From an uncultured Gammaproteobacteria bacterium (GTDB lineage Bacteria > Pseudomonadota > Gammaproteobacteria > Arenicellales > JAANXG01), in assembly GCA_947259175.1 (NCBI GenBank), contig CAMYKW010000004.1, positions 79,403 to 143,402 on the forward strand: DNA of 64,000 bases, read 5' to 3'. Shown in pieces: positions 15,784 through 55,012 of the stretch. The notes beneath the pieces are model-generated. The model did no database searches and had not been told where the DNA came from. It saw only the letters and a program-made list of their open reading frames with translations. Position numbers and translations under genes: made by a program. The stretch's first letter is position 1; the number at the start of each line of letters is the position of its first letter.

Positions 15784-18700
15784 TCAGGATGACGCTACGG
15801 CGTCTGCGCGCACCGCGGGCGGTTCCTCGCGCAACGCAAACCGCTCGATCACCGCGTCCGATAAAAGCGCCGCGTACCAGCAGCCGAGCCGGTCTTCCAG
15901 CATGTGGTGTGTGTGCACCCAGGCGCGCAGCCGTTCGCCATCCTTGGCCAGTGCGTCGCGGTCATGGATGCGGTCGCGGATGGCGGCGAGCCACGCTTCC
16001 GTGTCGTTGGCCACGCGGGTGATCGGCTGCGCCGCGTAAGGTGGGATATCCGTGGCGATCACCGGCCAGCCCATGGCCCCGTATTCGAGCACACGCAGGT
16101 CGCTCTTGCACTCGTTGAAGGCGTTGATCTCCAGGGGTGCAACGGCAAGGTCCAAGTCCAGTTGTGCGAGTTGTGCCGGATAGTGGCGGTAAACCACCGG
16201 CTGATAATACTCAGCAACATATGGCCGCAGCGCACGCGGGCACATACCCATCATCACCCAGTCCACTTCTCCGGCCAACGCCTCCATCACCGGCGCCAGG
16301 ATGGTGAGATCGCCATCGTGTTGTTGCGCGCCCACCCAGCCGACGCGGGGTCTGGCGGCTCGTCGGCGGCGTATTTCCAGGTGTCCCCAACGCTGGCGCT
16401 CGAGGAGGTTGGGGACCACGCGCACGTCATCGATGAACCCGCGGTACGCTGCGGCCAGTGGCTCCGTGGGAACCACCAGCCGGTGGCAGTGGGCCAGGGC
16501 GTCGCGAAGCCGCTGTTCCAGGTCCGCCGGCATCAGGCCCCGCCGGTCGTTGTCATCGGGCATGGCGAGCAGGTGGTCGTCGAGTCCGAACACCAGCAAC
16601 GCCTCGCCCGACTTCCGGTAGCGGGGCAGCCAGTGCAGGAAGGGATCGGTGAAGCCGTGATGGATTAGCACGGTGTCGGGCGCGGCCCGTTTCAATTCGC
16701 ACAATGTCGGCACCCGCGTGGGTACGGCGCCCTCGTGGTCGGGCAAGAACGCGATTTCGGCGTGTGCTGCACGATCCAGGGCCTGTAACGGTTGGCGCAC
16801 GCGGTATTCGCCGCTGCCCTGCCGGTTCAGGGGAAACGCCCACACCCGGGGCCGGGGGTGCTCCGGCGGCGTCCACGGCACCGCGAGTTCGTCTTCCACA
16901 CGCATGTCGCCGCGGGCGAGGGAAAGGTTCCGATTGTAGGCCGGGTCGTTCGCCAACAGGTCAGGCCAGCGTGCTATCAGCGTCGTGTTATCCGCCGTGG
17001 TCTTGGAGTTCGGATCGGGAGGGGCAGGCGATTGCGGCTCGTGGCTTTCGTGCTTCAGCAAGGTCGCGAACGGTGTCCACACCACCTCGTATCCCGCCTG
17101 GCGGGCGCGCAGACACAAATCCACATCGTGGCCGCACTGCGTGAATCCGGTTTCGTCGAAACCGCCCAGCTGCGCGAAAAGTTCCCGGGAAAGCAGCATA
17201 CAGGCGCCACTGACCGCCGAGAAGTTTTGTGCGACCTGTAGACGGTTGAGGTAACCGGGTGACTGCATCGCGTGTCCGGTAAACGCTCGCCCGGCGCCGT
17301 CGTCTATGCCCAATATCAAACCCGCATGCTGTACCCGTCCGTGCAGGTCAATGAGGCGTGCGCCCACCACCCCGACTTCCGGGCGCTGTACGTTGGCCAC
17401 CATTCGCGTCAGCCATTCGTCATGGATAGCCTGTGCATCAGGTTCGAGCACCAGCAACAGTTCGCCCCGCGATTCGGCGGCGGCGACATGGGTCAACGAT
17501 GCCGATCCCACGGCGCCGGGTGTGCGCAGCACGCGCACTTTGTCGTCATACGTGCGCGCCAGCTCGTCCAGCAGATCCGAATCGCCGCCGCCGCAATCGC
17601 TCAGGACGACCTCAAAGTCGGGGTAGCGGGTTTTCTGCAGCAAGCCTTCGATGCATAGGGGCAGCCATTTATAACGTCTCTCCACTGGAATCAGAATAGA
17701 CACCGAAGGCGGGTCGTGCGCCTGGTAATCGACAAAAAACGTTCCCGCGATCTCATGATGGGTCACTTGGGCGGTGAGACCGTTGCGTTCGAGGTGCGTC
17801 TCGACCGCGATACGGTCGTTTTCGGCGTCCGCGGCACCGATGGGCTCGCGGTCTTTGTCGCGCGGATAGTGGACGAGCACTTCCGGTATGTGGCCGACAG
17901 CGGATTCTCCGGCCGTATCCAGGATGCGCAACACCGCGTCGAAAACACCGGCGCCCGCGCCAAATCCTCCGCAACGGGTGAGCACATCACGCTCCAGCGC
18001 CAGCACGTCACCCATGTATGGCGTCGAACGCAGCAGGTCCAGGTTGAAGTCGGGTTTGAATCGCGGTTGATCGCGAGTCCCGTCTCGCGCAATATGGTCG
18101 TCGTCACAGTAGATTATCCGCCATTGCGGATATCGGTTCATATAGTCGCCCCAGCGCAGCAGGGCGTGGGGCGCGAACTGCACGCCCGATTTGGCGCGGA
18201 TGATCCAGTCGGCCTGGGATTCGCTGACGATCCGATTCAAGGTGTCGACTAGATCCCCGCGGATCTCCACCCACTCCAGATTGGGCAGTCGATGAAAACC
18301 CGCGTCCGGCGCCGGACAGTCCGCTATCACCGACAGGCCCCACCCCGGATACAGCTGTCGACACAGACTGTCGAGGGTGTCGGCCAGCGCGTCGTGCTGA
18401 TTCCCCTGGTGGATGGCAATCAACTGAAAGCTGGGCCGTAGCCGCCATGCGAGCATCATGCGCTCCGCCATGTATTGCGCCTTGTTTTCGGTAAGCGCGT
18501 GCGGCTGTTGCCACCGCGCGTAGCGGTCTGCATCGCTGTGCGCTGATCCTTCGTCGCGCCGCGCGCCTTCGAGTTGTGTCAGCGCCTGCGTCCGTCTCAG
18601 TTCCACCTGCGCATTGCCCGGCAGCGGGTAGCGTGCGTAGATTTTACGGTGCAAGGCTGGAAAGTCGTGCCGCTCGCGCTGACTCATGTTGTCGTCCCTG

Positions 18701-21105
18701 GCCTCGGGCCGCAGGCGGACCTCGGCGGTGATACGCGGCACGTGCACCGGGGCGGTAATCCGCGCAAGGCGCAGTAATAGGTCCCAGTCCTCGAGGGCGT
18801 TGAGCGTCACATCGAAGTCTCCGGTGCAGGCGATCAATTCGCGCCGGTGGGCCCAGGTGTTAACCGGAATGAAATTGCCGACATGCAGTTGTTCCAGGGA
18901 GTATTGGATGTGCGAATACGGCGTGGTGCGCGACAAAACTTGACGTTTACCGCCTGCGAGGCGTTCGCGCACGTACTCCGCTTCGGTATAGACCAGGCCG
19001 GCTTGGTTGCCGCGCATGCCGTCGACGATCGTTTCGAAGTGGTCCGGGCACAACCGGTCATCGTCATCCAGATAACAGAGAATCGCCCCCGCAGACAGGG
19101 AGATGCCGGTATTGCGCGCGGCGGAAAGGCCGCGATTTTGAGCGTGTCGAACGTAGCGAATCCGGCCGTGGGGATCCTTGGCGGTAATCCAGTCGCCGAT
19201 GTCTTCGCCGCCGTCGTTGACGACGATGGCCTCCCAGTTATTGTAACTCTGGGCAAGCACAGAGGCCACCGCATCGCGCAGTAAATCGGGACGGTCGAGG
19301 GTGGGAATGATCACCGACACCAACGGCGTAGCATCGATCGGCGGCAACTCTGGTGCGGATCGGGCATTGTCCGTCTCGGCTAAATCCAAGAACCGGAGCA
19401 GCAAGGTGTTGTGAGGATGAGTGTCACGGGTGCGCGTTAGTTTGGCGTGCTGCGCCGGCGATACGTGTTTGAGGCGTTCCTCCGCGTCGCTGATCTCATG
19501 CGGGTCAAACACACCGGATTGGTGTGGCGCCAATTGCGCGCGCACGTAGTCAAGATTTTCGAGTGTGTCTGCGACCATGCTGTTATCGCGGTTGCGGTAC
19601 AGGAACAGCGGTTGCGATACATGGTGTGATTTGAAACCGCATGCAGCGGCCGCCAGCCAGAATTCCCAGTCCTCGCCTCCCAGGTACATGGCCGGTGAGT
19701 AACCCCCGGTTCGCTCCCACACCTCGCGGCGGTACAGGCTGCAATAGTCGTGGATGTTGTGCCGCTTCAGGGCTTCCAGGGATACGCGGCCCTTGACGTG
19801 GACATGATCCGCAAGGCCGAAATTCTGCTCGTCCACGTAGACGATGGCGATATCCGCATACCGATCGAGCACGGTGACGGTCTGTGTAAGATAGTCCGGG
19901 TGCAGTTTGTCATCGGCATCCAACGGCAGGATGTAGCGGCCCTGGGATGCGTTGATACCGGAATTGCGGGCGCTGGCAAGCCCGGCATTGGCTTGGGAGA
20001 TCAAACGAATTCTACCGTCGCCGCGGGTCGCCGCGAACCGACGCACGACCTGCACACAGTCGTCGGGGCTCCCGTCGTCTACCACTACGCACTCCCAATC
20101 CGTGAAGCGCTGGGCAACGACACTTTCCAGCGCTTCGGTGACGTATTGCGCCTGAAGGTAACAGGGGATGACGATGCTGACCGCCGGCTGGTGATGCACT
20201 GCAACGGCATTATGCGCACGCAAGCCCCGCGACAAGATGCCGCGAACGCGGCGAATGTCCCGGTCCAGCGTCCATGCCGCCGCTCCGCAGGACTCGATAC
20301 GCCGGTCCAGATGCGCCAGGATCTCCAACTCCAATCCGCGCAGTCTCTCCGCCGCCGCGGAGTACGCGGCGCGGGCTACCAGGCGCAGATGTGTCTCGAG
20401 CAGCCCGGAGTCCGCCAGGCACTGCTGCGGGTCACTTCCCGCGTCGAGACGTCGCCGGACGCCCGGCGTGCGTGAGTAGAAGAAGTTCGGATTTTCGATG
20501 GCCAGGCGCGTAACCAGTTCCCATGCTTCGGCGCCGCGGGCCGACGGTTGGAATTCTCCCAACCGTAGCAGATCGCTGCCGCGGTACACGGTGGCGGCGG
20601 GATCGATATGGTTCCCGTGGGTGAGCAGTAAGCCGAGATCGTTGCGGCCTCCGGCGTAGTCTTGCGCCGCCAGTCCCGGGTGAGGGGGAGGCTGCTTGGT
20701 GTCTTCCTGGGTGCCGGCATATTCCGGCGCGGCATAACCCAGGGAGCATTCGGGATGCGCCTCCAGGCCGGCGATGATTCGCGCCAGATGACCGGGCAGC
20801 AGGTGTTCATCCCCCCGCAGCCAAGTGTGATAACGCCCACACCCCGGTTCCAGGGCGTGTGTCTGGAAATGTTGTGGCGTGGGATTTTTCGGCACACGGA
20901 CGCAGTTGATGCGTCCATCGGCGAGGTATGGTGCGACGGCCTCACGCAGACCATCGCTGCGGCCGTCATCCAGGATTATGATCTCCAACGGCGACACGTC
21001 CTGCAGCTGCACGCTTTCAACGCAGCGACCGAAGCTCGACGCATCCTCGTGCGGCCGGATAAAAACCGTGACGAGCACCTCGTTGTTCAATTCCCGAGTA
21101 TTCAC
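15784..21105 (-). CDS. Giant multidomain glycosyltransferase (several GT-A/GT2-like modules plus C-terminal GT-B-like module)
   Basis: 1773 aa. GT2-like starts are VTVFIRP..IIILDDG, VSIVIPCY..VVVDDGSPDD..DADD, VSVIIPTLDR..AQSYNNWEAIVVNDGG..DDDD and VSILIPV..VVLSDCGGGD. The C-terminal 370 aa carry VGWVGAQQHDGD..LDLAVAPLE..NECKSDLRVLEYGAMGWPVIATD. GTG start. Confidence 0.8.
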   Translation of the reverse strand: MNTRELNNEVLVTVFIRPHEDASSFGRCVESVQLQDVSPLEIIILDDGRSDGLREAVAPYLADGRINCVRVPKNPTPQHFQTHALEPGCGRYHTWLRGDEHLLPGHLARIIAGLEAHPECSLGYAAPEYAGTQEDTKQPPPHPGLAAQDYAGGRNDLGLLLTHGNHIDPAATVYRGSDLLRLGEFQPSARGAEAWELVTRLAIENPNFFYSRTPGVRRRLDAGSDPQQCLADSGLLETHLRLVARAAYSAAAERLRGLELEILAHLDRRIESCGAAAWTLDRDIRRVRGILSRGLRAHNAVAVHHQPAVSIVIPCYLQAQYVTEALESVVAQRFTDWECVVVDDGSPDDCVQVVRRFAATRGDGRIRLISQANAGLASARNSGINASQGRYILPLDADDKLHPDYLTQTVTVLDRYADIAIVYVDEQNFGLADHVHVKGRVSLEALKRHNIHDYCSLYRREVWERTGGYSPAMYLGGEDWEFWLAAAACGFKSHHVSQPLFLYRNRDNSMVADTLENLDYVRAQLAPHQSGVFDPHEISDAEERLKHVSPAQHAKLTRTRDTHPHNTLLLRFLDLAETDNARSAPELPPIDATPLVSVIIPTLDRPDLLRDAVASVLAQSYNNWEAIVVNDGGEDIGDWITAKDPHGRIRYVRHAQNRGLSAARNTGISLSAGAILCYLDDDDRLCPDHFETIVDGMRGNQAGLVYTEAEYVRERLAGGKRQVLSRTTPYSHIQYSLEQLHVGNFIPVNTWAHRRELIACTGDFDVTLNALEDWDLLLRLARITAPVHVPRITAEVRLRPEARDDNMSQRERHDFPALHRKIYARYPLPGNAQVELRRTQALTQLEGARRDEGSAHSDADRYARWQQPHALTENKAQYMAERMMLAWRLRPSFQLIAIHQGNQHDALADTLDSLCRQLYPGWGLSVIADCPAPDAGFHRLPNLEWVEIRGDLVDTLNRIVSESQADWIIRAKSGVQFAPHALLRWGDYMNRYPQWRIIYCDDDHIARDGTRDQPRFKPDFNLDLLRSTPYMGDVLALERDVLTRCGGFGAGAGVFDAVLRILDTAGESAVGHIPEVLVHYPRDKDREPIGAADAENDRIAVETHLERNGLTAQVTHHEIAGTFFVDYQAHDPPSVSILIPVERRYKWLPLCIEGLLQKTRYPDFEVVLSDCGGGDSDLLDELARTYDDKVRVLRTPGAVGSASLTHVAAAESRGELLLVLEPDAQAIHDEWLTRMVANVQRPEVGVVGARLIDLHGRVQHAGLILGIDDGAGRAFTGHAMQSPGYLNRLQVAQNFSAVSGACMLLSRELFAQLGGFDETGFTQCGHDVDLCLRARQAGYEVVWTPFATLLKHESHEPQSPAPPDPNSKTTADNTTLIARWPDLLANDPAYNRNLSLARGDMRVEDELAVPWTPPEHPRPRVWAFPLNRQGSGEYRVRQPLQALDRAAHAEIAFLPDHEGAVPTRVPTLCELKRAAPDTVLIHHGFTDPFLHWLPRYRKSGEALLVFGLDDHLLAMPDDNDRRGLMPADLEQRLRDALAHCHRLVVPTEPLAAAYRGFIDDVRVVPNLLERQRWGHLEIRRRRAARPRVGWVGAQQHDGDLTILAPVMEALAGEVDWVMMGMCPRALRPYVAEYYQPVVYRHYPAQLAQLDLDLAVAPLEINAFNECKSDLRVLEYGAMGWPVIATDIPPYAAQPITRVANDTEAWLAAIRDRIHDRDALAKDGERLRAWVHTHHMLEDRLGCWYAALLSDAVIERFALREEPPAVRADAVASS

Positions 21106-21340: not shown

Positions 21341-21356
21341 TGCAATTTCCATACCA
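21341..21356 (-). promoter_or_regulatory. Candidate sigma-54 promoter upstream of the giant glycosyltransferase
   Basis: The minus strand reads TGGTAT-GGAAA-TTGCA with GG-N10-GC spacing kept, about 235 nt upstream of the GTG at 21105. Confidence 0.3.
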
Positions 21357-21507
21357 TCGGTGGAAAGCGGGCCTGGATCGGCGAGGCGTCGGGCTTTTGA
21401 CGCTCTGCACCGGCAAGCCTTTGCCCGGCGCGGCAAGTTTTCGGCGTGCGCGGGCTAGATGAGCGCCATGATCACCGTTTCGTAGCGGCGACCGTCAAAC
21501 GCGGTGG

Positions 21508-22191: not shown

Positions 22192-22485
22192 TTACTCACG
22201 GGCGTCAAATGGGTGTTCGATCGATTGCAGTCGATAAATGAATGCCAACACCTCCGCGACCGCCTGGTAGAGCTGCACCGGGATATCGGCATCGAGATCG
22301 ACCTGCGCGAGCAGACCGACCAATTCGGGATCTTCGTACAGCGGCACGCCTGCTTGTCTTGCAATGCCGATAATCTGTTCGGCGATCAGCCCGCGTCCTT
22401 TCGCCACTACCCGCGGCGCGTGATCGTCGCGTTCATACTTGAGCGCAACGGCATTGCGGTAATCACCGTGTCGTTTAGACTTCAC
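22192..22485 (-). CDS. Free-standing FlhB C-terminal-domain-like protein (EscU/YscU/FlhB family fragment)
   Basis: 97 aa reading AVALKYERDDHAPRVVAKGRGLIAEQIIGIARQAGVPLYEDPELVGLL..VAEVLAFIY. GTG start overlaps the upstream stop (GTGA). Confidence 0.75.
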   Translation of the reverse strand: MKSKRHGDYRNAVALKYERDDHAPRVVAKGRGLIAEQIIGIARQAGVPLYEDPELVGLLAQVDLDADIPVQLYQAVAEVLAFIYRLQSIEHPFDARE

Positions 22486-23648
22486 GCCTGGACGTCCAGC
22501 AGTGGTTGTTGAATACCCGGAAAATCCGCCTCATGGATGCCCGACGCACAGACCACGGATTCCGGAACCAGGCCGATGTTGCGCAGTCGGTCGCATAGAC
22601 CGTCGAGGTGGGATTGGGCGAGTGCTACCGTCGCATCGCGTTCCGCGCGTAACACAACGGAAATCAAGTCGCCGGAGAGGGTTAAGCGCGCCTGCATTGC
22701 GCCGATGGACGGCAGCTCGATTGAGACGACGGTGGAAAATACGCCCCCCCCTTGTCCACCCCGCGACGACGGTCGTTTCTCGATTCTGAATCTCACCATT
22801 TGCACCTCGTCTCCGTCTCGTACCGGCAGCTCCAGATTCCACGCGGATCTCGAACCCTCGACTTCGATCAGCGATGTGAGTTGGTGCAGCTGAATTCGCG
22901 CGAGCGCGCTTTCCACCTGTTGGGACAAAGCGTTTAATGTCTTGACGACCGCGGCGTCGCCAGGCGACGCTGTATTTGTATTGCCATGCGCCTGCTGATT
23001 TGTCGTGGCGGGTGCACTGCGGCTGCGAACCGGGCGCGAACCGCCCGGATTCACCATATCAGCCAGTGCGGTACGCAGCCGCACCAGTCCCGCCTTGAAA
23101 TCCCGTTCCAACGCGCCACGATGGGAGTCCGACAGCAGCCTGAGCAGGCGCTGTTCCAGAAAATGACCGCTGTTCAATATCGCCTGTTTTACAGATTCCC
23201 CGGACAAGGATCCGCTGATCTGGGTCAGACTATCGACGACGTGGCGAGCCAATTGCGTGATCGAGCCGGGTAGTCGCGTACCACCGGACTGGCGCGCGAT
23301 ACGATGTAAATTTGTCAACAACTCGATAATCGATCCCTGTTTCGGCAGTTGTTGCCGAATCGCCTGCACCAGGTTGGACGGATGCAGTTGCTGGTCGAGA
23401 ATCCTGAGCCGAATCTCCGGTCCGATCTTCTCCACCACCAGCGCCAGGGATTGACCGGCGATCAGTGGCAGCGTAGTGCGAGCAGTGAACGTAGCCTGGT
23501 TCAGTTGCAGCGTCACCGTTCCCTGCTGGGCGACGGTGAGGACGGTGCCGGAAAGCTGCTGGCCGACCGCGAGCCCACTGAGCTGCGCGTGATTCGACGC
23601 CACCGTGAGCAACTGCTGGGTGACCAGTGAGGTTGATATGGATTCCAT
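22482..23648 (-). CDS. FliK-like protein (flagellar hook-length control C-terminal-like domain)
   Basis: 388 aa. The C-terminal block WNLELPVRDGDEVQMVRFRIE..VVSIELPSIGAMQARLTLSGDLISVVLRAERDATVALAQSHLDGLCDRLRNIGL follows the Flg_hook-type pattern. It is translationally coupled to the FlhB-like gene. Confidence 0.6.
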   Translation of the reverse strand: MESISTSLVTQQLLTVASNHAQLSGLAVGQQLSGTVLTVAQQGTVTLQLNQATFTARTTLPLIAGQSLALVVEKIGPEIRLRILDQQLHPSNLVQAIRQQLPKQGSIIELLTNLHRIARQSGGTRLPGSITQLARHVVDSLTQISGSLSGESVKQAILNSGHFLEQRLLRLLSDSHRGALERDFKAGLVRLRTALADMVNPGGSRPVRSRSAPATTNQQAHGNTNTASPGDAAVVKTLNALSQQVESALARIQLHQLTSLIEVEGSRSAWNLELPVRDGDEVQMVRFRIEKRPSSRGGQGGGVFSTVVSIELPSIGAMQARLTLSGDLISVVLRAERDATVALAQSHLDGLCDRLRNIGLVPESVVCASGIHEADFPGIQQPLLDVQA

Positions 23649-29500: not shown

Positions 29501-30421
29501 CTACGCCTGGTTGTCGCCAAGGCCCGGCGCAAGGTCGCTGATGATGCGGCTCAACGCCGCGTCCCGTTGCGCGGCATAGGAGGCAATCAATTCGTCAGCG
29601 CGTCCAGGGGTGACGACCCCCGGTGCGCCCTGGGGCGCACCGACCTCGAGACCTGCGAGGGCCAAGCCCTTTTCACTCAACGCGTGCTCAATATCCGCTC
29701 TTGCGGCCTCCAGCGCGGCGCGCAGTCCCGGATCCTGGACGCCGAACGCCAGCTCCACGGTATCGTCACGGATATCGACCTGCGCTTCGATACGGCCGTA
29801 AACAGGATGGTCGACTGCGAATTCGCCATTGGGTACTTCCGCGTGCGACATATTGGCGAGCGCTTGGCCGATTTTTTCACCCAGATAGCCTGGATCCTGC
29901 AGCTTGTCTAGGGGCGGTGTTTCGTGTTTCACCGCCTCGGCGTCTGCGGCCTGGTTGTCCGCGGGCGGGGCCGGCACCTGGGCGACATCGTTGATCGCGG
30001 GTTGCTCCGTCGGCGCGCCGATGTTCGCCAGCATTTCGGCGAGGGCGTGTTGCGGTTGTTCGTCAGCGCCGCCGTGGAGGGTGTTGAATATCTCGTTGCC
30101 GTTGATCGTGATCCGTGAATAGGTCACCGATTCCAAGGTGACGCCCGACGGCGGCAGCACGCCGGCGGGTGCAAACGGAAAATTTCCGCCACCCATGGCA
30201 AGGGATTGCCACGGCGAACAACACCCGGACTGAGGCGCGGCGGCGGCAGCCAACCCCGCCTGATGGGGTGGTTGCAACTGCTGAAGCTGCTGGTTGAAAA
30301 GTGCGTGAAAAGGCGATTGACCGTCGGCGATAGCGGCGTTATGCGGGTTCGACGGCGACGCTGCGACCGGTAATCCGGTGGCGCCGTTCGGTCCAAGCAG
30401 CGATGCGAGTAGCTGTGTCAT
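29501..30421 (-). CDS. FliK-like protein (Pro/Gln/Ala-rich N-terminal part, Flg_hook-like C-terminal part)
   Basis: 306 aa with a GGAGGA SD. The C-terminal block reads EFAVDHPVYGRIEAQVDIRDDTVELAFGVQDPGLRAALEAARADIEHALSEKGLALAGLEVG. Confidence 0.5.
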   Translation of the reverse strand: MTQLLASLLGPNGATGLPVAASPSNPHNAAIADGQSPFHALFNQQLQQLQPPHQAGLAAAAAPQSGCCSPWQSLAMGGGNFPFAPAGVLPPSGVTLESVTYSRITINGNEIFNTLHGGADEQPQHALAEMLANIGAPTEQPAINDVAQVPAPPADNQAADAEAVKHETPPLDKLQDPGYLGEKIGQALANMSHAEVPNGEFAVDHPVYGRIEAQVDIRDDTVELAFGVQDPGLRAALEAARADIEHALSEKGLALAGLEVGAPQGAPGVVTPGRADELIASYAAQRDAALSRIISDLAPGLGDNQA

Positions 30422-30468: not shown

Positions 30469-30484
30469 AGCAATGTTCGTGCCA
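30469..30484 (-). promoter_or_regulatory. sigma-54 promoter for the FliK-like gene and flgA
   Basis: The minus strand reads TGGCAC-GAACA-TTGCT, a perfect -24/-12 consensus, about 50 nt upstream of the ATG at 30421. Confidence 0.7.
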
Positions 30485-33235: not shown

Positions 33236-33251
33236 TGGCACGAAGCTTGCT
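33236..33251 (+). promoter_or_regulatory. sigma-54 promoter for flgBCDE...
   Basis: TGGCAC-GAAGC-TTGCT, a perfect consensus, 38 nt upstream of the flgB ATG. Confidence 0.75.
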
Positions 33252-44055: not shown

Positions 44056-47000
44056 ATGAACAACAACGCCGGTGAGCAGCGCGACGTCGCGCAGTTGAAT
44101 CGAGAAGGCGAAAACCTGTTCCAGGACGGCGATATCGCCGGCGCAATGGCCAAATTCGAGCTGGCGCTGACGGTGGATGATGCACATCCGGAGACTTTGA
44201 ATAACCTCGGCGTCGGCCATCTGCACCTCGGCGATACCGAGCGCGCGCTGCAGTGTCTGGCGCGGGGGTTGGAATCGCACCCGCAAAATCGCGAGCTGCT
44301 GACCAATGCTTGCACCGTACTCCGCGAGCTGGGGTATGACCGGGATGCGGAGATACTCGAGCTTGGTGTCGAGGCCCTCAGCCGTGGAGATACGGACACA
44401 TGTTGGGCGCCCGGCGAACAGGCACGGGACTTCGTGGCCGGTTTGGCGCCCCTGGGCGCACGGCCGTTGGTGTCGGTGGTCGTCATTGCCGACAGCGGTT
44501 TGGCGGCCATGCAAAGCGCCTTGGGTACACTGGCCGCGCAGAGCTATGACAACTGGGAGGCGGTGATTATTTCCAGTCACCGTGAGGCAGCCGCGCTGCG
44601 GGACCGTCGTCACGCCCCGGACGCGCGAATTCGTTACCATGAGACGCGTGCCGACAACCCCGCCGGCGCCCGCAACGACGCCTTGCGCGCGGCGCAGGGG
44701 GAGGTGATCTGTTATCTCAACGATACCGAATTGTTCCTGCCCCACCATCTGTCCACGGTCGTCGCTGCGTTGCGGGAGCGTGCAGTCCCGTTTGTTTACA
44801 CCGATGCGCAGGTGGTGCACGGTGTGGCCGCAGACGGAGCGTGCGAAGCGCTGTTCACCGATCAGGTGTCGAGCGACGCGGAGTTTTGTCGGGACCGGAT
44901 TCTGGTCGACAACCCGATATCCATCGCGACCTGGGCGCACCGAGCCGGATTTGTCGAAAGCCTGGGCGGTTTCGATGAGTCGCTGCGGGCGTGCGAGGAT
45001 TGGGATCTACTGCTGCGATTCAGCGGCCACCGCCCACCGGTGCACGTCCCCCGCGTGAGCGTGCAGATCCGGCGTCAAGGCGGCGCGGTGGACCTGGCGC
45101 GGACCGCCCTCCCAGGGCATCTCGCGGACGGCGTCGTCGATATCCTGTACCGACGCTATCCGGTGACCGCGCCGGCGTTACAGCGGGCGAGGAATGCCCG
45201 GTTACGGCAGTTGGCGCACGAGCGGCGGCGCCAAAGCGCGGACTCGCCGTACGTGCGCATGGACGAATTGTACCCGTTATGGGTCGAGAAACATCAGCTG
45301 TCCGAGGCGGACGGAGAGATTCTCGCTGAACGGATGATGACCGACTGGAGTCACCAGCCGACCATTGAGATTTTGATGGTTGCCGAACCGGGCGATGAGT
45401 CCCGCATGTGCGACACCGCGGTTAGCCTGCGTCGTCAGTTATATGGCCAGTGGCGTTTGACGGTGATTTGCCCCGAACCGATGACCCCATGCCCTGGGCT
45501 GCCTCAAGCCCGGTTCCGCGCGATCGTCCATCGCGGCGATCCAACGGCGGCGTTGAACAGCGTGGCCAAGGGCACCGCGCGGGACTGGATCGCGCTCATC
45601 GACCCCGGCGACCTCCTGCCGCCCCACGCGCTGTTTGCCTGCGCCGACTACATCAGACTCCATCCAAACTGGCGGTTGCTGTACACCGACGAGGACTGTA
45701 TCGACCCGGCGGGCAATCGTTTTGATCCTAAATTCAGACCGGATATCAATATGGACTTGTTGCGGTCCACCGCCTACACCGGACCTTTCTGCTTGGTGCG
45801 TGCCGATGCGTGGCGGGCGTTGGCGGGCGTCACCACGGTCGATGACAGTAAGACTTACGACTTGACGCTAAAGGTCGTGGATCGGTTTGGGGAGGACGGC
45901 GTCGGGCACATCGCCGATGTGCTGTATCACCGCCGGCGCGGTAAACGCACAAACGACGACGGCGAGATCCGCCGCGGCGAGCTGCGCGCGCTCAAAAATC
46001 ATTTCGAGCGCAATGGGATTGGCGCCGACGTCGAACCCGGCTATCTGCAGGGCACCCATTTCATCACCTACCGGCACGATCAATCCCAGCCGCTGGTGTC
46101 CATCATCGTCCCGACGCGCGACAAATTGGAGTACCTGCGTCCCTGTGTCACCAGCGTCTTGGATAAGACCCGTTATGAGTCGTACGAGCTGATCATCGTC
46201 GACAACGGCAGCGACGATCCGCAAACCCTCGAATTTCTTGATGAACTGGAGGGCGCGCATCGACACGTTCGCGTGCTTCGCTATCCACATCCGTTCAATT
46301 ACGCCGAGATCACCAATTGGGCGGCGGTTCAGGCCCGGGGTGATTACCTGTTGCTGCTGAACAACGATACCCATGTAGTGCACGACAACTGGCTCGGGCG
46401 GATGGTGAACCAGGGAATGCGTAGCGAGGTGGGTGTGGTCGGCGCGCGCCTGGTATTCGCGGATATGCGCTTACAGCATGCCGGGGTGGTGACCGGCATA
46501 CATGATATTGCCGACCATGTGTTTCTCAAACTGCCCATGGATGAACCCGGTCACTTGGGCCGGGCGCAGTGCGTACAGAATTACTCGGCGGTAACCGCGG
46601 CTTGCATGCTGGTGCGCAAATCGGTATTCCTTGAGGTCGGGGGGATGGACCAAGCCGAACTTGCGGTGCTGTACAACGATGTGGACCTGTGCCTGAAGAT
46701 CGGCGCGCGGGGGTTGAAAGTGGTGTGGACGCCCTACGCGACTCTGATACACCACGGTTCGCGCAGTATCCGCGAATACAACGACAAATCGGATCTTCTG
46801 CAGCGTAAATCGGAGGCCCACTGCATGGTGCGCAGGTGGTTGCCGCGGCTTGCCCGGGATCCTGCGTACAACCGCAACCTGACGCTGAAGCACTGCGATG
46901 CGCGTGTGGAAACCCAGGTCGACGTGAGCTGGGACCCGAGTTTCCACGACCGGCCGCGGGTGATGGCGTTTCCGTTTCATCGCTGGGGTTCGGGTGAATA

Positions 47001-47976
47001 CCGGGTACGCGCGCCGGTGCGCGCGCTGCACGATGCCGGTCGCATTCAATATGCGTTGATGCCCTTGAACAACACGCGACGGGCGCCCCATCTGTGCGAG
47101 CTGGAGCGGGTGGCGCCGGATGTCCTGCTGATGCACAACACCCTGCATGACGAGTACCTGAAACTTCTGCCGCTGTACAAGCAATACAATTCCGCTTACC
47201 GCGTGTTGGGTCAGGATGATCTGATAAGTGCATTGCCCCCGAAAAATCCTTATCGGAAAACGGTGTATCCGGACATAGAGCAACGCATCCAACGCGCCTT
47301 GGAATGCTGCGATCGTCTGCTGGTTAGCACGGAACCGTTGGCGCAGGCGTTCGCAGGGATGATTGAAGACATTGTGGTGTTGCCGAATTACCTCGAGCGT
47401 GCGCGATGGGGCCGGTTGCGCTCCGCGAGGCGTCGCGGCGCGCGGCCGCGCATCGGTTGGGCGGGTGCGCAGCAGCATCAAGGTGATCTGGAGTTGCTGA
47501 TCGAAGTCGTGCGGGCCACCCGCGACGAAGCGGATTGGGTGTTCATGGGCATGTGCCCGGAACAGATCCGGCCGTGGTGTGCGGAGTATCATGACGGTGT
47601 GACTATCGACCGCTATCCACAGGTGCTTGCGTCTCTGGATCTCGATCTCGCCGTGGCGCCGCTCGAGGTCAACGCGTTCAACGAGGCGAAAAGCAACCTG
47701 CGGCTGCTGGAGTACGGCATCCTGGGATGGCCGGTGGTGTGCACCGACATCTTTCCCTATCGCGACGCACCGGTGTGCCGCGTCGCCAACACCCCCGGCG
47801 CGTGGATCGACGCGCTGCGCGAGCGCATCCACGATCTCGAGGCCGCGGCGCGGGAGGGCGATGCGCTCAGGCGCTGGGTTCGCGAGCGCTGGATGCTGGA
47901 CGATCACCTCGATGAATGGATGGCGGCGCTGCTGCCGGGGCAGGGCATGGCCTGTGCTCGGGATGTGCGCGGCTAA
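44056..47976 (+). CDS. TPR-containing multidomain glycosyltransferase, likely flagellin glycosyltransferase; paralog of 15784-21105
   Basis: 1306 aa. TPR-like N-terminus (AMAKFELALTVDDAHPETLNNLGVGH). GT2-like modules are AAQSYDNWEAVII and VSIIVPTRDK..LIIVDNGSDD..LLLNNDT. The C-terminal module reads IGWAGAQQHQGD..LDLAVAPLE..NEAKSNLRLLEYGILGWPVVCTD. It is located between flgL and fliC. Confidence 0.8.
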   Translation: MNNNAGEQRDVAQLNREGENLFQDGDIAGAMAKFELALTVDDAHPETLNNLGVGHLHLGDTERALQCLARGLESHPQNRELLTNACTVLRELGYDRDAEILELGVEALSRGDTDTCWAPGEQARDFVAGLAPLGARPLVSVVVIADSGLAAMQSALGTLAAQSYDNWEAVIISSHREAAALRDRRHAPDARIRYHETRADNPAGARNDALRAAQGEVICYLNDTELFLPHHLSTVVAALRERAVPFVYTDAQVVHGVAADGACEALFTDQVSSDAEFCRDRILVDNPISIATWAHRAGFVESLGGFDESLRACEDWDLLLRFSGHRPPVHVPRVSVQIRRQGGAVDLARTALPGHLADGVVDILYRRYPVTAPALQRARNARLRQLAHERRRQSADSPYVRMDELYPLWVEKHQLSEADGEILAERMMTDWSHQPTIEILMVAEPGDESRMCDTAVSLRRQLYGQWRLTVICPEPMTPCPGLPQARFRAIVHRGDPTAALNSVAKGTARDWIALIDPGDLLPPHALFACADYIRLHPNWRLLYTDEDCIDPAGNRFDPKFRPDINMDLLRSTAYTGPFCLVRADAWRALAGVTTVDDSKTYDLTLKVVDRFGEDGVGHIADVLYHRRRGKRTNDDGEIRRGELRALKNHFERNGIGADVEPGYLQGTHFITYRHDQSQPLVSIIVPTRDKLEYLRPCVTSVLDKTRYESYELIIVDNGSDDPQTLEFLDELEGAHRHVRVLRYPHPFNYAEITNWAAVQARGDYLLLLNNDTHVVHDNWLGRMVNQGMRSEVGVVGARLVFADMRLQHAGVVTGIHDIADHVFLKLPMDEPGHLGRAQCVQNYSAVTAACMLVRKSVFLEVGGMDQAELAVLYNDVDLCLKIGARGLKVVWTPYATLIHHGSRSIREYNDKSDLLQRKSEAHCMVRRWLPRLARDPAYNRNLTLKHCDARVETQVDVSWDPSFHDRPRVMAFPFHRWGSGEYRVRAPVRALHDAGRIQYALMPLNNTRRAPHLCELERVAPDVLLMHNTLHDEYLKLLPLYKQYNSAYRVLGQDDLISALPPKNPYRKTVYPDIEQRIQRALECCDRLLVSTEPLAQAFAGMIEDIVVLPNYLERARWGRLRSARRRGARPRIGWAGAQQHQGDLELLIEVVRATRDEADWVFMGMCPEQIRPWCAEYHDGVTIDRYPQVLASLDLDLAVAPLEVNAFNEAKSNLRLLEYGILGWPVVCTDIFPYRDAPVCRVANTPGAWIDALRERIHDLEAAAREGDALRRWVRERWMLDDHLDEWMAALLPGQGMACARDVRG

Positions 47977-50930: not shown

Positions 50931-51001
50931 GTGCGCGATCGTCGATGACGACATGATTGTTAATCTTTGAATGAATACAGTTTAGAGAAGAGGATGGCAC
51001 G

Positions 51002-51442
51002 ATGAATAACGCTTACGCAGCCGGTGTGGTCAAACAATACGAGCAAGTAGCCAAGCAGACAGCCGCCGTGTGCGACGACCCGCACCGTCTGGTGACCTTG
51101 CTGTTGGAGGGCGCCTTAGACCGCTTGTCGCTAGCCAAAGGGCATGCCGCGCAGAACGTGTTCCACGAAAAAGGCCGCCATATCCAGTCGGTGATGGCGA
51201 TCATCGACGGGTTGCGCATGAATCTGAATAAACAGGCCGGAGGCGAAATCGCTCAGAATCTGGACCAATTGTACGACTACATGAACCGCCGGTTACTCGA
51301 GGCGAATTTGAAAAACGATGTGTCGATGATGGACGAAGTGATCGGTCTTTTGAATGAGATCAAGGCCGGATGGATCGCCATTGGAAAGGGAAACGCGGTA
51401 AGCGGTGAAACTGCTTCCCGCGCAGAGGGTATCTCGCCGTGA
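51002..51442 (+). CDS. fliS: Flagellin chaperone FliS
   Basis: 146 aa reading PHRLVTLLLEGALDRLSLAKG..IQSVMAIIDGLRMNLN..AQNLDQLYDYMNRRL. Confidence 0.9.
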   Translation: MNNAYAAGVVKQYEQVAKQTAAVCDDPHRLVTLLLEGALDRLSLAKGHAAQNVFHEKGRHIQSVMAIIDGLRMNLNKQAGGEIAQNLDQLYDYMNRRLLEANLKNDVSMMDEVIGLLNEIKAGWIAIGKGNAVSGETASRAEGISP

Positions 51443-51789
51443 GCACAGAGGCAATCAACGAATCCGCCGGCGCGGCGCCTTACCAGTCCGCGTCATGGGA
51501 GGATGTATTGGCGATGACTCAAGAGATGCTGCATGCTGCGAAATCGGAGCTTTGGGAACGTGTCGGTGAATTGGAAGCGGCCCGCCATCCACTGTTACAC
51601 GCCGTCATGGATCGGCCGGTGACCGCCGCGGATGCGCGGACCGTCGCAGACAACATCCATTCCGTCGTCGACGCCGATAACGAGATCCAACAACTCGTTC
51701 GGGAGCGGCTCAGCGGCCTGCAGACGCAACTGACAGGTATGAGGAAGACCCGGCGCGCCAGCCTGGCGTACGCCCGCGGGAGCGTGTGA
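51439..51789 (+). CDS. fliT: FliT-like flagellar chaperone (putative)
   Basis: 116-aa helical protein overlapping the fliS stop by 4 nt. The call rests on position and size; motif support is weak. Confidence 0.45.
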   Translation: MSTEAINESAGAAPYQSASWEDVLAMTQEMLHAAKSELWERVGELEAARHPLLHAVMDRPVTAADARTVADNIHSVVDADNEIQQLVRERLSGLQTQLTGMRKTRRASLAYARGSV

Positions 51790-51805
51790 CGACGGTTGTT
51801 CTTTT

Positions 51806-53308
51806 TTATCCGGGATCGCCGTTGCCGGTGGAAGAATGCGCGTCACGCCCGGCAAGCGGTCGGGCCGCCGACGCGGCCTTGGATTCCCAGATCGTGATGC
51901 GCATGTCGTTTCCCGAGGTTGCCAGCCATCGGCCGTCGCGGGAAAACGCCACCGAGACCACCGATACCGTGTCACTATCGAGGTTCTGCATGAGCGCACC
52001 GGTTGCCGCATCCCAGACCCGCGCCTGTCCGTCTTCGGAACACGAGACCAGATAACGTCCATCCGGCGAGTAAGCAAGCGAGCGTATCGTAGCCGTATGC
52101 CCCGGAATACTGCGTTCCACGCGGCGCTGCGCTAGAGACCAGATACGAATGACTCGATCCGTTCCCGCCGAGGCGACGTAGCGCCCCTCGGGTGAGAACG
52201 TGACCGCGTTAACCGCACCGCTATGTCCTTTCAAGGCGGAGAGTTCCCGTCGATTGGGTGCGTGCCACAGGCGAATGGCGGCATCCTGTCCCCCGGAGAC
52301 CAGCATCTCGCCTCCGGGAGCGAACGCCAGCGCGCGTAATCGATGCTCGGCGGCCGGGAGTTGTGCGATACGAACGCCCGAAAACGGGTCCCATAAATTC
52401 ACCTGATTATCGGCGTCCAGGGAGGCAAGACTCAGACCGTCCGGGGAGAAGTGCACCTGGGCGACGCGATCCCGATGACCGAGAAAGGTCCGCACCTGTG
52501 CGCCGGTCTGCGGCTGCCACAACTTGATCGTGCGGTCCCAGCTCGACGACGCCAACCACATTCCGTCCGGGGAAAAGCTGATATCCGAGATGCGGTCGCT
52601 GTGACCGGTGAGGGTGTGCAGCACCTTCCCGGTTGCGGCATCCCACAGTCTGATCGTATGGTCGGCGCCGCCGGATGCGAGCCGGTCGCCGGCCGGGGAA
52701 AAGGCGACCGACAGGATCTCGCCTTTGTGTCCGGAAAGCGTGCGCGCCGGCGTGAAAATCGCGACTCGCGGTTTAGTTTGCTTCGCCGGCGCCGGCGTCG
52801 GCGGCTGCCGACGACCCGCGATGTCCTTGGCCGGCTGCTGCATCGTGCCGATGCGTGACCCGAGGTGCTCGACGCGGAAACTCAATTGGTCGAGGTGTCC
52901 GCTGAGCCGTTTGATTTCTTTGATGATCAGTTTTCGCTCTTCGGCGAGCAGTTGCAATCTTTCGATCAACGCGACCTCACTACCGCCCAACATGGCCTCG
53001 CCATCCCCGTTTCCGGCGGCGGCCCGTTCATTGATGCGCGTGCTCAAGGCCTCGAATTCGGTGTGTAGCGCGGCGACCACGGTGTTGTGTTCGTCCAGTT
53101 GTGCGCGCAGCAAGTTGTCCGTGGCGCGGCCGCGTATCGCCAGGGTAATCAGTATCGCCAGTATCGCGGCCACCGCCACCGATACCGCGATCGTAATCCA
53201 CGGAATGTCGGGCGCCGGTGGCACCGGTGGCGCGGGTTGCTCTTCGGATGTCAACGGTAAGTCCCCCAAGCTTGGTGATACTGACCCATCATCGCGCGAC
53301 ACCGTCAA
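51806..53308 (-). CDS. Membrane-anchored coiled-coil / seven-bladed WD40 repeat protein
   Basis: One TM segment WITIAVSVAVAAILAILITLAI followed by RGR, then about 90 aa of heptad-like sequence. Seven repeats follow, of the type GH..V.SVAFSPDG..LAS.S.D.TI.LWD. The start is TTG at 53308 or GTG at 53302, with no ATG available. Confidence 0.8.
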   Translation of the reverse strand: MTVSRDDGSVSPSLGDLPLTSEEQPAPPVPPAPDIPWITIAVSVAVAAILAILITLAIRGRATDNLLRAQLDEHNTVVAALHTEFEALSTRINERAAAGNGDGEAMLGGSEVALIERLQLLAEERKLIIKEIKRLSGHLDQLSFRVEHLGSRIGTMQQPAKDIAGRRQPPTPAPAKQTKPRVAIFTPARTLSGHKGEILSVAFSPAGDRLASGGADHTIRLWDAATGKVLHTLTGHSDRISDISFSPDGMWLASSSWDRTIKLWQPQTGAQVRTFLGHRDRVAQVHFSPDGLSLASLDADNQVNLWDPFSGVRIAQLPAAEHRLRALAFAPGGEMLVSGGQDAAIRLWHAPNRRELSALKGHSGAVNAVTFSPEGRYVASAGTDRVIRIWSLAQRRVERSIPGHTATIRSLAYSPDGRYLVSCSEDGQARVWDAATGALMQNLDSDTVSVVSVAFSRDGRWLATSGNDMRITIWESKAASAARPLAGRDAHSSTGNGDPG

Positions 53309-53344
53309 AAATACGGCGTTGCGCGGCGAAACGTAATAGAAATA

Positions 53345-53360
53345 TGCAAGTTTCAGACCA
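53345..53360 (-). promoter_or_regulatory. Candidate sigma-54 promoter for the WD40 gene
   Basis: The minus strand reads TGGTCT-GAAAC-TTGCA with GG-N10-GC spacing kept, about 38 nt upstream of the TTG at 53308. Confidence 0.35.
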
Positions 53361-53443
53361 GGAAAATATGATCTGGATCAAGTCCCGGCGCAACACGCGA
53401 ACGCGGTCGCCCCGGTGCACCGGCCTGCGGCCGGCGCGGTGGT

Positions 53444-53472
53444 TTGACACTTTTACATTCCCTTGCTATTAC
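53444..53472 (+). promoter_or_regulatory. sigma-70-type promoter for fleQ
   Basis: TTGACA-N17-TATTAC, leaving a leader of about 200 nt before the fleQ ATG. Confidence 0.55.
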
Positions 53473-53491
53473 AGAGTGTAGTGCGAAGTTT

Positions 53492-53505
53492 TTCAATTAA
53501 TTGAC
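53492..53505. promoter_or_regulatory. Palindromic FleQ-box-like operator/UAS
   Basis: TTCAATTAATTGAC has a perfect 12-bp palindromic core TCAATTAATTGA. It matches 12 of 14 positions of the P. aeruginosa FleQ consensus GTCaNTAAAtTGAC as I recall it. Confidence 0.4.
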
Positions 53506-53681
53506 GACAAAAATTCTGGTTCCGGTTCTACGCAAAGGGGGAGGCGCTTGTCGCTAATTCACGCAAGACTCATTGGGTCGCGGATACGCTGGTAATTGTG
53601 ATTGCGCGGCCGCAAAGACGATCCGTTAACGGCCCGCAGGCTCGCGGCGCGGCGTCGGCGGTTTAGGACGAGGCGAGTGCG

Positions 53682-54968
53682 ATGACTGAGCGCGGTATTG
53701 TCATTGTTGAAGGTGACAGCGAACAACGAAAACAGATTGAATGCCTGCTTGCGGCGATCAGTGAACGGATCGTGGCCACCGACTTTGACCATTTACGCCG
53801 TATTACGGATCAGGATCAGGGCAAATCCCCGCTGTGGGCGGAGGTTCAGGGGTTGATTAGGGCCTCCAGGCAGCAGGCCGGGCCATCGAAAACGGACTGC
53901 TCCGCCAAGGATCAGCGATCCCCGGAATTGTTTCGCTGTCTGGTGGGTTCCAGCCCCGGTCTGATGCGGGTCAAGAAGGCGATCATGCAAGTGGCGGACT
54001 CCGACACCAACGTGATGTTGCTCGGCGAATCAGGTACCGGTAAGGAGGTGGTCGCACGCAACATTCATTATCACTCCCGGCGCCGGGGAAAGCCGTTCGT
54101 CCCTATCAATTGCGGGGCAATTCCCGCTGAGTTGCTGGAAAGCGAATTGTTCGGCCACGAAAAAGGTGCGTTCACCGGCGCGATCTCCAGCCGCCGCGGA
54201 CGGTTCGAAATGGCGCAGGGCGGCACTTTATTCCTGGACGAGATCGGGGACATGCCCACCGCGATGCAGGTTAAACTGCTGCGCGTTCTGCAGGAACGCA
54301 ACTTCGAACGCGTGGGAAGTGAAAAAACCGTTCAGTCGAACGTTCGCATCATCGCCGCCACGCATCGCGATTTGGAGAGCCAAATCGAAGCGGGAAACTT
54401 TCGCGAGGATCTTTACTACCGGTTATGCGTGTTTCCTATCAACATTCCACCGCTGCGGGAACGTATCGAGGATTTGTCCGCATTGATCGAGTGCGTGCTC
54501 GATCGTTTGAAGAACGAAAGACAGGCGAAGATCAGCTTGACCAAGGGCGCAACGACTATCCTGCGCCGCTATGCCTGGCCCGGCAACGTACGCGAATTGG
54601 CCAATCTCATCGAGCGTTTGTTGATCATGTATCCCAACCAACGCGTAGATATTGCGGACCTGCCCGAACGCTACCGGCGAAACGTCGAAATCGAGGAGAT
54701 GGAATTCGATCCCCCGGCGGACGCCGGAGGTCAGCAGACGTCGACTGCCACACTGCCCGCCGGCGGAATCGATCTCAAACAGCACCTCTCCGACGTCGAG
54801 CGATCACTGATTGAACAGGCGTTGCTTCAAGCCGACGGCGTGGTGGCGCGGGCCGCGGAAATTCTTAAAACGCGGCGCACGACTCTGGTGGAAAAGATCC
54901 GCAAATACAAACTCGAAACGACCCCGCCGCGACGGGAATTTGACGGCTGCGAGGCCGTTAATTCCTAA
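53682..54968 (+). CDS. fleQ: sigma-54-dependent flagellar master regulator FleQ/FlrA-type (short N-terminal domain)
   Basis: The AAA+ core is close to my recollection of Pseudomonas FleQ ([66 protein letters not shown]). C-terminal [23 protein letters not shown]. An in-frame stop at 53664 excludes a longer N-terminus. Confidence 0.88.
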
Positions 54969-54996: not shown

Positions 54997-55012
54997 CGGC
55001 ATTGTTTTTGCT
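54997..55012 (+). promoter_or_regulatory. sigma-54 promoter for fleS-fleR
   Basis: CGGCAT-TGTTT-TTGCT, located between the fleQ stop and fleS. Confidence 0.6.

Follow-up and report, generated by a model that had tools for sequence, protein, structure and literature searches.

The 64-kb stretch of gammaproteobacterial DNA analysed here (the window) is a large region devoted to flagella and chemotaxis. It encodes methyl-accepting chemotaxis proteins, CheA, FlgA, two FliK-like proteins and glycosyltransferases, followed on the plus strand by flagellin (fliC), flaG, fliD, fliS and fliT in a row. The interval between fliT and fleQ is filled by a single minus-strand open reading frame (ORF), convergent with fliT and divergent from fleQ, whose product carries a WD40 propeller behind a predicted membrane helix; this WD40 gene is the subject of the present analysis. 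Past it lie genes for a FleQ-type activator, a FleS-type kinase and a FleR-type response regulator, then fliE, and the ORFs downstream of fliE are fliF, fliG, fliH and fliI in syntenic relatives. An earlier reading of the bare sequence (the sequence-only reading) had seen in the gene a FleQ-dependent, membrane-anchored cytoplasmic scaffold, possibly active at the flagellar base or the cell pole, and had named its conservation in the fliT-fleQ gap of related genomes as a test.

Orthologues were found through the fleQ neighbour, since protein searches were swamped by generic WD40 matches. A search with the full-length protein and a genome scan returned only generic WD40 proteins at 47-80% query cover, and neither the window protein nor an orthologue; the best propeller matches, 38-46% identical, came from Desulfobacteraceae, Planctomycetes, Poribacteria and other phyla. 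The four closest orthologues were likewise missed by large protein searches, though their fleQ neighbours were returned. A profile search with the N-terminal alignment gave nothing, and an exhaustive phmmer comparison of the N-terminal 185 residues with 1.84 billion cluster representatives gave two matches only (P0241 and P0242). A scan of JGI metagenomes with the zipper motif described below recovered two loci, both in the already known distant subgroup.

The closest FleQ homologues are 81, 80, 74 and 71% identical to that of the window, followed by a group at 61-63%. Three of the related loci (L081, L082/L083 and L084) carry a minus-strand gene of 454-478 aa in the fliT-fleQ gap, and on L085, a short contig showing one side of the gap, the WD40 gene lies directly upstream of fleQ. 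The P0242/P0243 gene again lies between fliT and fleQ (L087, a short contig with one side visible, and L088/L090). L091/L092 holds a further member, whose annotated start removes the transmembrane (TM) helix and whose family-type TTG start restores it. Every related locus that spans the gap keeps the gene in the same orientation (four with FleQ at 71-81% and two at 61-63% identity), and these gap-spanning loci come from different assemblies (L081, L082/L083, L084, L088/L090 and L091/L092), so that the conservation asked for in advance was found. In the more distant FleQ relatives L096 and L097, fleQ stands behind flgM, without fliT and without the WD40 gene. Judged from the searches and from the conservation of the gap, the family is therefore rare, confined to one uncultured gammaproteobacterial clade, and fixed there in the fliT-fleQ gap.

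Seven full-length members (alignment A1) share 39-64% identity and the same architecture, with identity in the N-terminal part falling to 26-29%. The ratio of non-synonymous to synonymous substitution rates (dN/dS) of the WD40 gene is 0.20-0.28 across four relatives, compared with 0.06 for fleQ, 0.07 for fliS and 0.4-0.5 for fliT. Saturation of dS makes these ratios approximate. By these comparisons it is a real gene under purifying selection. A truncated copy occurs in two independent samples (L093, 5543-6544, minus strand; L095, 2383-3396, plus strand), where the gene breaks after the first WD40 blade and is fused in frame to an unrelated tail of ~150 aa. Unrelated genes have taken the place of the fliT side, and both copies still have the sigma-54 element and TTG start, the TM helix, the zipper and fleQ as their neighbour. 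Such retention may mean that the N-terminal module, and its association with fleQ, are important by themselves; alternatively, these loci may hold a decaying copy.

Start codon and architecture of the WD40 protein

The features of the gene and its product, as revised here, are the following:

51806..53254, minus strand: coding sequence of the TM-zipper-WD40 protein, revised by orthologue comparison; TTG start at 53254, 482 aa, stop at 51806-51808
53255..53308, minus strand: first 18 codons of the 500-aa ORF, probably an untranslated leader (TAG in L081; conserved as a DNA element, not as codons)
53262..53267, minus strand: Shine-Dalgarno-like GGGGGA, 7 nt ahead of the TTG at 53254
53198..53254, minus strand: N-terminal tail, residues 1-19, acidic and Pro-rich, predicted periplasmic from alignment and charges
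53135..53197, minus strand: TM helix, residues 20-40, then RGR; from hydropathy and flanking charges in seven members, helical in the AlphaFold2 model
53018..53134, minus strand: predicted membrane-proximal cytoplasmic helix, residues 41-79, with weak heptads and poor conservation
52985..53017, minus strand: Gly-rich hinge of variable length, residues 80-90, at a helix break in the model and at indels in alignment A1
52847..52984, minus strand: conserved helix, residues 91-136, which includes a six-heptad leucine zipper (residues 96-140)
52757..52846, minus strand: disordered Pro/Lys/Ala-rich linker, residues 137-166, of low model confidence and without sequence conservation
51881..52756, minus strand: seven-bladed WD40 propeller, residues 167-458, from Pfam PF00400, AlphaFold2 and Foldseek
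51809..51880, minus strand: C-terminal tail, residues 459-482, disordered in the model and missing in the distant subgroup

The ORF-finder version of the gene (51806..53308, minus strand) has 500 aa and begins with a TTG at 53308. The sequence-only reading had noted that TTG and GTG are the only starts available, and the same holds in related loci: a non-ATG start (TTG or GTG) is present in all eight compared loci and is, on this alignment, a conserved family trait. In L081 an in-frame TAG stands two codons 5' of the equivalent of the TTG at 53254, and the orthologues cannot reach beyond the equivalent of residue 19 of the 500-aa ORF. Furthermore, a purine-rich Shine-Dalgarno-like stretch lies 4-8 nt ahead of the TTG or GTG at the revised start in all eight loci (GGGAAA, GGGGAC, GGGAAC, GGGATG, GGAGGG, GGAGGG and GGCGGG in the related ones), and GGGRA-N6-8-TTGACA is common to the window, L081 and L082. 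We moved the start to the TTG at 53254 because the TAG of L081 blocks upstream extension and because the Shine-Dalgarno-like stretch and TTGACA are conserved; this is likely the true start. The TTG at 53308, which sits within a conserved non-coding leader element, is probably not used. The acidic, Pro-rich N-terminus, formerly taken to be 35 aa long, is accordingly shortened to probably ~19 aa.

Behind this tail, which ends in a D-I/L-P-W motif conserved among the five closest members, the TM segment ITIAVSVAVAAILAILITLAI has 21 residues and a mean Kyte-Doolittle value of 2.8. The AlphaFold2 model of the 482-aa form has a mean pLDDT of 84 and places helices at residues 18-79, of which the TM helix is the first part, and at residues 91-136. 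The homologues supplied to the model were generic WD40 proteins, and its N-terminal helices therefore come from a single sequence. The second helix bears out the heptad-like region proposed earlier: the a and d positions of its zipper read LRILVI and LLILLLM, 12 of the 13 being hydrophobic, so that the register is close to perfect over the six heptads. It also concentrates the conservation of the N-terminal part, with 15 of the 19 invariant positions of alignment A2 falling between R99 and R134, and its family signature is RLQLLAEERxLxIxEIKRLxGxxDQLxxRVExLxxRI. An N-terminal profile compared with the PDB matched only the coiled coils of Lpp and GCN4 (best Lpp, E 0.0035, a generic likeness), and a Pfam scan of the N-terminal module at E up to 10 gave no family, only coiled-coil noise.

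The linker that follows has a pLDDT below 50 at residues 136-154, with 10-residue block means of 36-51 over residues 131-160. The propeller itself is clear: Pfam PF00400 matches in seven stretches (250 bits against a cut-off of 27, E 1.4e-76), and the model shows 28 strands in seven blades at a pLDDT of ~98. Foldseek aligns it at 37% identity and a TM-score of 0.97 both to designer WRAP-T propellers and to the WD40 domain of Thermomonospora curvata PkwA (5yzv); LIS1 and WDR5 (the latter with a TMt of 0.9) come next. By sequence and modelled fold, it is a generic canonical bacterial WD40 propeller. Pfam, the model and hydropathy thus agree with the sequence-only reading of a TM helix followed by RGR, a Pro/Lys linker and seven WD40 repeats.

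The charges flanking the TM helix point to the orientation of the protein in the membrane. The 15 residues after the helix contain 3, 3, 2, 3, 3, 3 and 3 Lys or Arg (K+R) in the seven members and those before it 0, 2, 3, 3, 1, 1 and 1, giving sums of 20 after the helix and 11 before it. Arg or Lys stands right behind the helix in every member, either as RGR or as FRS plus another K or R. The N-terminal flank has a negative net charge in the window (-3), L085 (-1) and L090 (-2), and 0-1 K+R in four of the seven members. We therefore favour a topology with the C-terminus inside, in line with the cytoplasmic C-terminal part predicted earlier from the charge behind the helix.

Control region of the WD40 gene

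Upstream of the coding sequence we distinguish four elements:

53303..53317, minus strand: conserved leader element GCCGTATTTTTGACG, ~47 nt after the TGG of the sigma-54 element; in five close loci
53345..53360, minus strand: sigma-54-type -24/-12 promoter TGGTCTGAAACTTGCA, TGG-N8-TTGCA, 106 nt upstream of the TTG at 53254
53444..53472, plus strand: fleQ sigma-70-type promoter, TTGACA at 53444-53449, 17 nt, TGcTATTAC
53492..53505, no strand assigned: AT-rich palindrome GTCAATTAATTGAA / TTCAATTAATTGAC, its centre 138 bp upstream of the sigma-54 TGG

The element TGGTCTGAAACTTGCA has GG at -24 and GC at -12 at exact spacing (TGGCAC-N5-TTGCW type). Taken by itself the bare pattern is not unusual, with 6 matches in the window against 3.4 expected. 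Its conservation is what argues for a promoter: TGG-N8-TTGCA is found on the gene's strand in all eight loci, 79-194 nt ahead of the start codon. The alignment of the surrounding 120 nt (A4) has 11 invariant columns; those of TGG.C....A.TTGCA are the only ones in the region, and one more, a C, lies further downstream. Since the bases of the element alone are invariant amid diverged promoter DNA, sigma-54 dependence of the WD40 gene, which the sequence-only reading had suggested from the same element, is well supported by comparison. Transcription from a sigma-54 promoter would therefore require a flagellar enhancer-binding protein, FleQ or FleR. Both are encoded nearby, and on present sequence grounds they are equally possible as activators.

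The palindrome was indeed found where the sequence-only reading had placed it, and shares 12 of its 14 positions with the Pseudomonas FleQ box GTCaNTAAAtTGAC. It is the sole site in the 64 kb at no more than two mismatches to that box (being a palindrome, it gives 2 strand-matches, against 0.62 expected). The consensus derives from P. aeruginosa and is a poor genome-wide predictor (PMC6120874). L090, L091 and L093 have similar palindromes, TTCAAAAATTTGAA or TTCAATAAATTGAA, upstream of the sigma-54 element at a distance of 130-157 bp. The dependence on FleQ that had been read from the palindrome is less well established. At up to four mismatches the palindrome is absent from the four closest relatives (L081, L082, L084 and L085), and it also fits the consensus of integration host factor (IHF) with one mismatch; we found no separate IHF site between palindrome and promoter. 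In addition, it lies at about +13 to +26 of the fleQ sigma-70-type promoter, that is, in the fleQ leader, and could therefore serve fleQ autoregulation instead. This fleQ promoter, GTTTGACA with TTGCTAT, is invariant in five loci (alignment A6); a generic promoter scan skips it, as its -10 hexamer ends in C.

The arrangement resembles the FleQ-dependent sigma-54 promoters of Pseudomonas (fleSR, flhA, fliE and fliL) in having a -24/-12 promoter in a flagellar cluster beside fleQ, and differs in that the closest relatives lack the predicted upstream box. Pseudomonas FleQ acts both from a distance and near the promoter (PMC6120874), and the WD40 gene has a candidate box ~140 bp upstream as well as the conserved leader element to set beside such sites.

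The leader element could be an activator site downstream of the promoter, or possibly a weak RNA hairpin. Its TTGACG is also present in L091. A test for RNA structure gave a weak signal (z -1.17, consensus energy -3.5 kcal/mol, one compensatory pair), and no Rfam family was found within 51000-54200. The window contains one other exact CGNNNTTTTGACG, at 21390-21402 (plus strand), 34 nt upstream of a TGGT-type sigma-54-like element. That element, TGGTATGGAAATTGCA at 21341-21356 (minus strand), lies ~235 nt upstream of the gene for a 1773-aa protein with four GT2 stretches (15784-21105), which may possibly be co-regulated with the WD40 gene. A one-mismatch copy of TTTGACG type, CGGGAATTTGACG (54933-54945, plus strand), falls in the final stretch of fleQ and precedes the sigma-54-like element of fleS by ~55 nt. 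That copies of the leader motif near sigma-54-like promoters mark a shared activator site is a lead suggested by their positions, not a result.

Proposed role, rival explanations and known systems

The fixed position between fliT and fleQ and the gene's own conserved sigma-54 promoter suggest to us a lineage-specific flagellar accessory protein. We lean towards the view that the WD40 gene belongs to the polar-flagellum regulon and that its product is a membrane-tethered oligomeric docking scaffold. The gene would be transcribed from its own sigma-54 promoter through FleQ or FleR and translated from the conserved weak TTG. The N-terminal helix would insert in the inner membrane, leaving the ~19-residue tail outside and the remainder in the cytoplasm, and the six-heptad leucine zipper may join the chains, probably into dimers or trimers. 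Every chain would then carry one seven-bladed propeller on a flexible linker of ~30 residues. At ~1.5 A per helical residue, the propellers would lie ~10-20 nm below the membrane, a depth at which the export gate, the ATPase complex and the C-ring would also be found. There they could hold a cytoplasmic partner at the membrane beside the nascent or working flagellum; candidates are FlhF/FlhG, the C-ring, the export apparatus, a chaperone-substrate complex such as FliT-FliD, and FleQ itself.

More tentatively, this would be the first WD40-propeller component of a bacterial flagellar system: a sigma-54-controlled, inner-membrane-tethered, zipper-oligomerised adaptor that recruits an assembly, placement or regulatory factor. 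It may have arisen in one uncultured gammaproteobacterial clade by fusion of an unclassified TM-zipper module, which can persist alone beside fleQ, to a horizontally acquired propeller.

Several points weigh against the scaffold proposal. The palindrome is missing from the closest relatives and its fit to IHF speaks against a simple FleQ reading. In L082 and L084 the Lys of the N-terminal tail equal or exceed the K+R after the helix, and for these two the topology call is not decisive. All carriers of the gene are uncultured, and its neighbourhood is circumstantial evidence of function. The propeller, being generic, gives no clue to a partner, and constraint is moderate, dN/dS being four to five times as high as in fleQ and fliS.

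It is possible that the protein regulates rather than docks, as a membrane-tethered modulator of FleQ or FliT that holds or releases FleQ according to the state of assembly. It would then be comparable to a membrane-anchored counterpart of the FleN/FlhG anti-activator, or to other membrane-sequestered transcription factors. We consider this fairly unlikely. The gene is always divergent from fleQ, the two sharing one regulatory region with the palindrome within the fleQ leader, but a divergent arrangement is by itself weak evidence. The L093/L095 copy, having lost fliT and the propeller, kept its adjacency to fleQ, as would be expected of a FleQ modulator. FleQ of the close subgroup also has an unusually short N-terminal region (86 aa, without PF06490); however, the distant subgroup pairs the WD40 gene with a full-length FleQ, so that the short N-terminus does not correlate with the gene. 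Moreover, Pfam scans revealed no sequence relation to FleN/FlhG or known anti-activators.

The opposite topology, in which the helix is an uncleaved signal anchor and coiled coil and propeller form a lineage-specific periplasmic scaffold round the motor, would resemble most known lineage-specific motor additions, which are periplasmic (H and T rings, PflA/PflB). The N-terminal tails of L081, L082 and L084, with 2-3 Lys each, would fit it, and so might the Pro-rich linker, which resembles periplasm-spanning linkers, and the match to periplasmic Lpp, although the latter reflects a generic coiled-coil likeness. The charge sums, the basic residue behind the helix in every member and the negative N-terminal flanks of the window, L085 and L090 argue the other way and make this arrangement unlikely. 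A cleavable signal peptide is ruled out, the hydrophobic stretch being 21 residues long and without a small-x-small site. Finally, the gene could be a passenger, a horizontally acquired repeat protein without flagellar function whose promoter answers a non-flagellar sigma-54 activator. Its G+C content (0.62-0.65, against 0.54-0.60 for fliS, the fliD-fliS stretch and most of fleQ), the location of the nearest propellers in unrelated phyla and the rarity of the family (2 of 1.84 billion cluster representatives and 2 JGI loci) could be read in this way. Nevertheless, position, orientation, promoter and start codon have been kept while the flanking non-coding DNA diverged past alignment, selection is purifying, the gene is present at every locus showing the fliT-X-fleQ gap, and more distant relatives with a different fleQ context are without it. 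A mere passenger is thus very improbable.

The sequence-only reading could name no described flagellar component of this architecture, and neither Pfam nor the literature searched offered a counterpart: searches for WD40 proteins in connection with polar flagella, flagellar gene clusters or FleQ brought up nothing pertinent and no flagellar WD40 protein. Flagella and motility go unmentioned in a survey of ~4,000 prokaryotic WD40 proteins (PMC5587647). In design, the closest known protein is FipA, a polarity factor of Vibrio, Shewanella and Pseudomonas with 163 aa that interacts with FlhF and recruits it, and in which a very short periplasmic N-terminus, one TM helix and a cytoplasmic coiled region precede the FlhF-binding domain DUF2802; it interacts with itself through a region outside the binding domain, and its gene lies in the flagellar region of polar-flagellate gammaproteobacteria (PMC11620751). 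The window protein is like FipA in its N-terminal TM helix, its predicted cytoplasmic coiled region and its flagellar gene region. It is unlike FipA in that its binding module would be a WD40 propeller instead of DUF2802, and in the position of its gene, which is between fliT and fleQ and, for FipA, downstream of the flhA-flhF-flhG operon. The Pfam families listed (the best 25 in some tables) include DUF2802 neither for the N-terminal part (E up to 10) nor for the full protein, and FipA would be a functional analogue at most, not a homologue.

A similar likeness of design, rather than descent, is suggested by LIS1/PAFAH1B1, which also couples an oligomerising coiled coil to a seven-bladed WD40 propeller and docks with the latter onto a large machine (fold matches 7mt1 with a TMt of 0.91, 8fdt and 8ptk; propeller identity 23-27%). 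LIS1, however, is a soluble eukaryotic protein that has a LisH motif and lacks a membrane anchor; LisH is absent among the Pfam matches listed for the window protein, whose N-terminus is a TM helix. For the propeller alone, the PkwA domain 5yzv also superposes with a root-mean-square deviation of 1.1 A, and thousands of canonical bacterial WD40 proteins, including the arrays of STAND NTPases, are 30-46% identical. These bacterial proteins join the propeller to a kinase or NTPase, and among the matches listed none has a TM-zipper module or a flagellar context. The only genome match that seemed to cover the coiled-coil region, L070, was rejected as an instance of the same architecture, being a 1278-aa protein with an NTPase and a WD40 array. 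An anti-phage WD40/HEAT assignment (PADLOC HEAT-ARM_XIII) was also discarded, as it covers only profile positions 106-280 of 1972 and reflects repeat-level similarity.

What appears to be new is thus a known fold joined to an unclassified TM-zipper module as a lineage-specific accessory protein of a flagellar locus. Accessory factors that position, count and stabilise polar flagella (FlhF, FlhG, HubP/FimV and FipA) are still emerging, and explain how differing flagellation patterns come from one conserved machine. To our knowledge, bacterial WD40 proteins are numerous and almost wholly uncharacterised. If the proposal is true, the bacterial family would gain a concrete setting in the cell through a member of the flagellar regulon, and the known parts of the flagellum would come to include a cytoplasmic adaptor of a new type. 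The reach is limited, since the family occurs in a small uncultured clade and statements on function derive from neighbourhood and sequence. The conserved promoter, start codon and zipper motif offer handles for heterologous work despite the uncultured hosts.

Neighbouring genes in the window

The genes on either side of the WD40 gene are:

51439..51789, plus strand: fliT (Pfam FliT, 1.3e-14), which ends the fliC-flaG-fliD-fliS-fliT row
53682..54968, plus strand: fleQ/flrA-type sigma-54 activator gene (Pfam), divergent from the WD40 gene

With 16 nt between their stop codons (51790-51805), fliT and the WD40 gene run towards each other, so that transcription from both sides would collide; a generic scan for sigma-70 promoters and terminators found neither a terminator hairpin nor a promoter between the two genes. 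At this side of the WD40 gene, L084 has an extra plus-strand ORF of 95 aa without a Pfam match (5726-6013), and L091 has a 68-aa ORF in the same place. On the other side, the FleQ-type activator of the window has 428 aa, with the sigma-54 interaction domain beginning at residue 87, and no match to PF06490, the FleQ N-domain, was found in it. Its orthologues in L081-L085 have 424-431 aa, and those of the distant subgroup (L091 and L095) have 477-479 aa with a PF06490 match. It seems that the receiver-like domain of FleQ was shortened in the close subgroup. Named FleQ relatives, 52-67% identical at the closest, belong to Ectothiorhodospiraceae, Methylomarinovum, Methylocaldum and Candidatus Thiodiazotropha.

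Giant glycosyltransferases with multiple GT2 stretches flank the flagellar genes, one of 1306 aa at 44056-47976 (plus strand) and the above-mentioned one of 1773 aa at 15784-21105 (minus strand). The former lies directly upstream of flagellin, an arrangement shared by relatives, with tetratricopeptide repeats, and this placement suggests flagellin glycosylation. The FliK-type Flg_hook domain is present in two genes (22482-23648 and 29501-30421, both on the minus strand). A canonical sigma-54 element, TGGCACGAACATTGCT (30469-30484), stands just upstream of the second of these, and a further canonical element, TGGCACGAAGCTTGCT, is found at 33236-33251 (plus strand). The sigma-54-like element CGGCATTGTTTTTGCT at 54997-55012 (plus strand), in the 60-nt gap between fleQ and fleS, is that of fleS itself.

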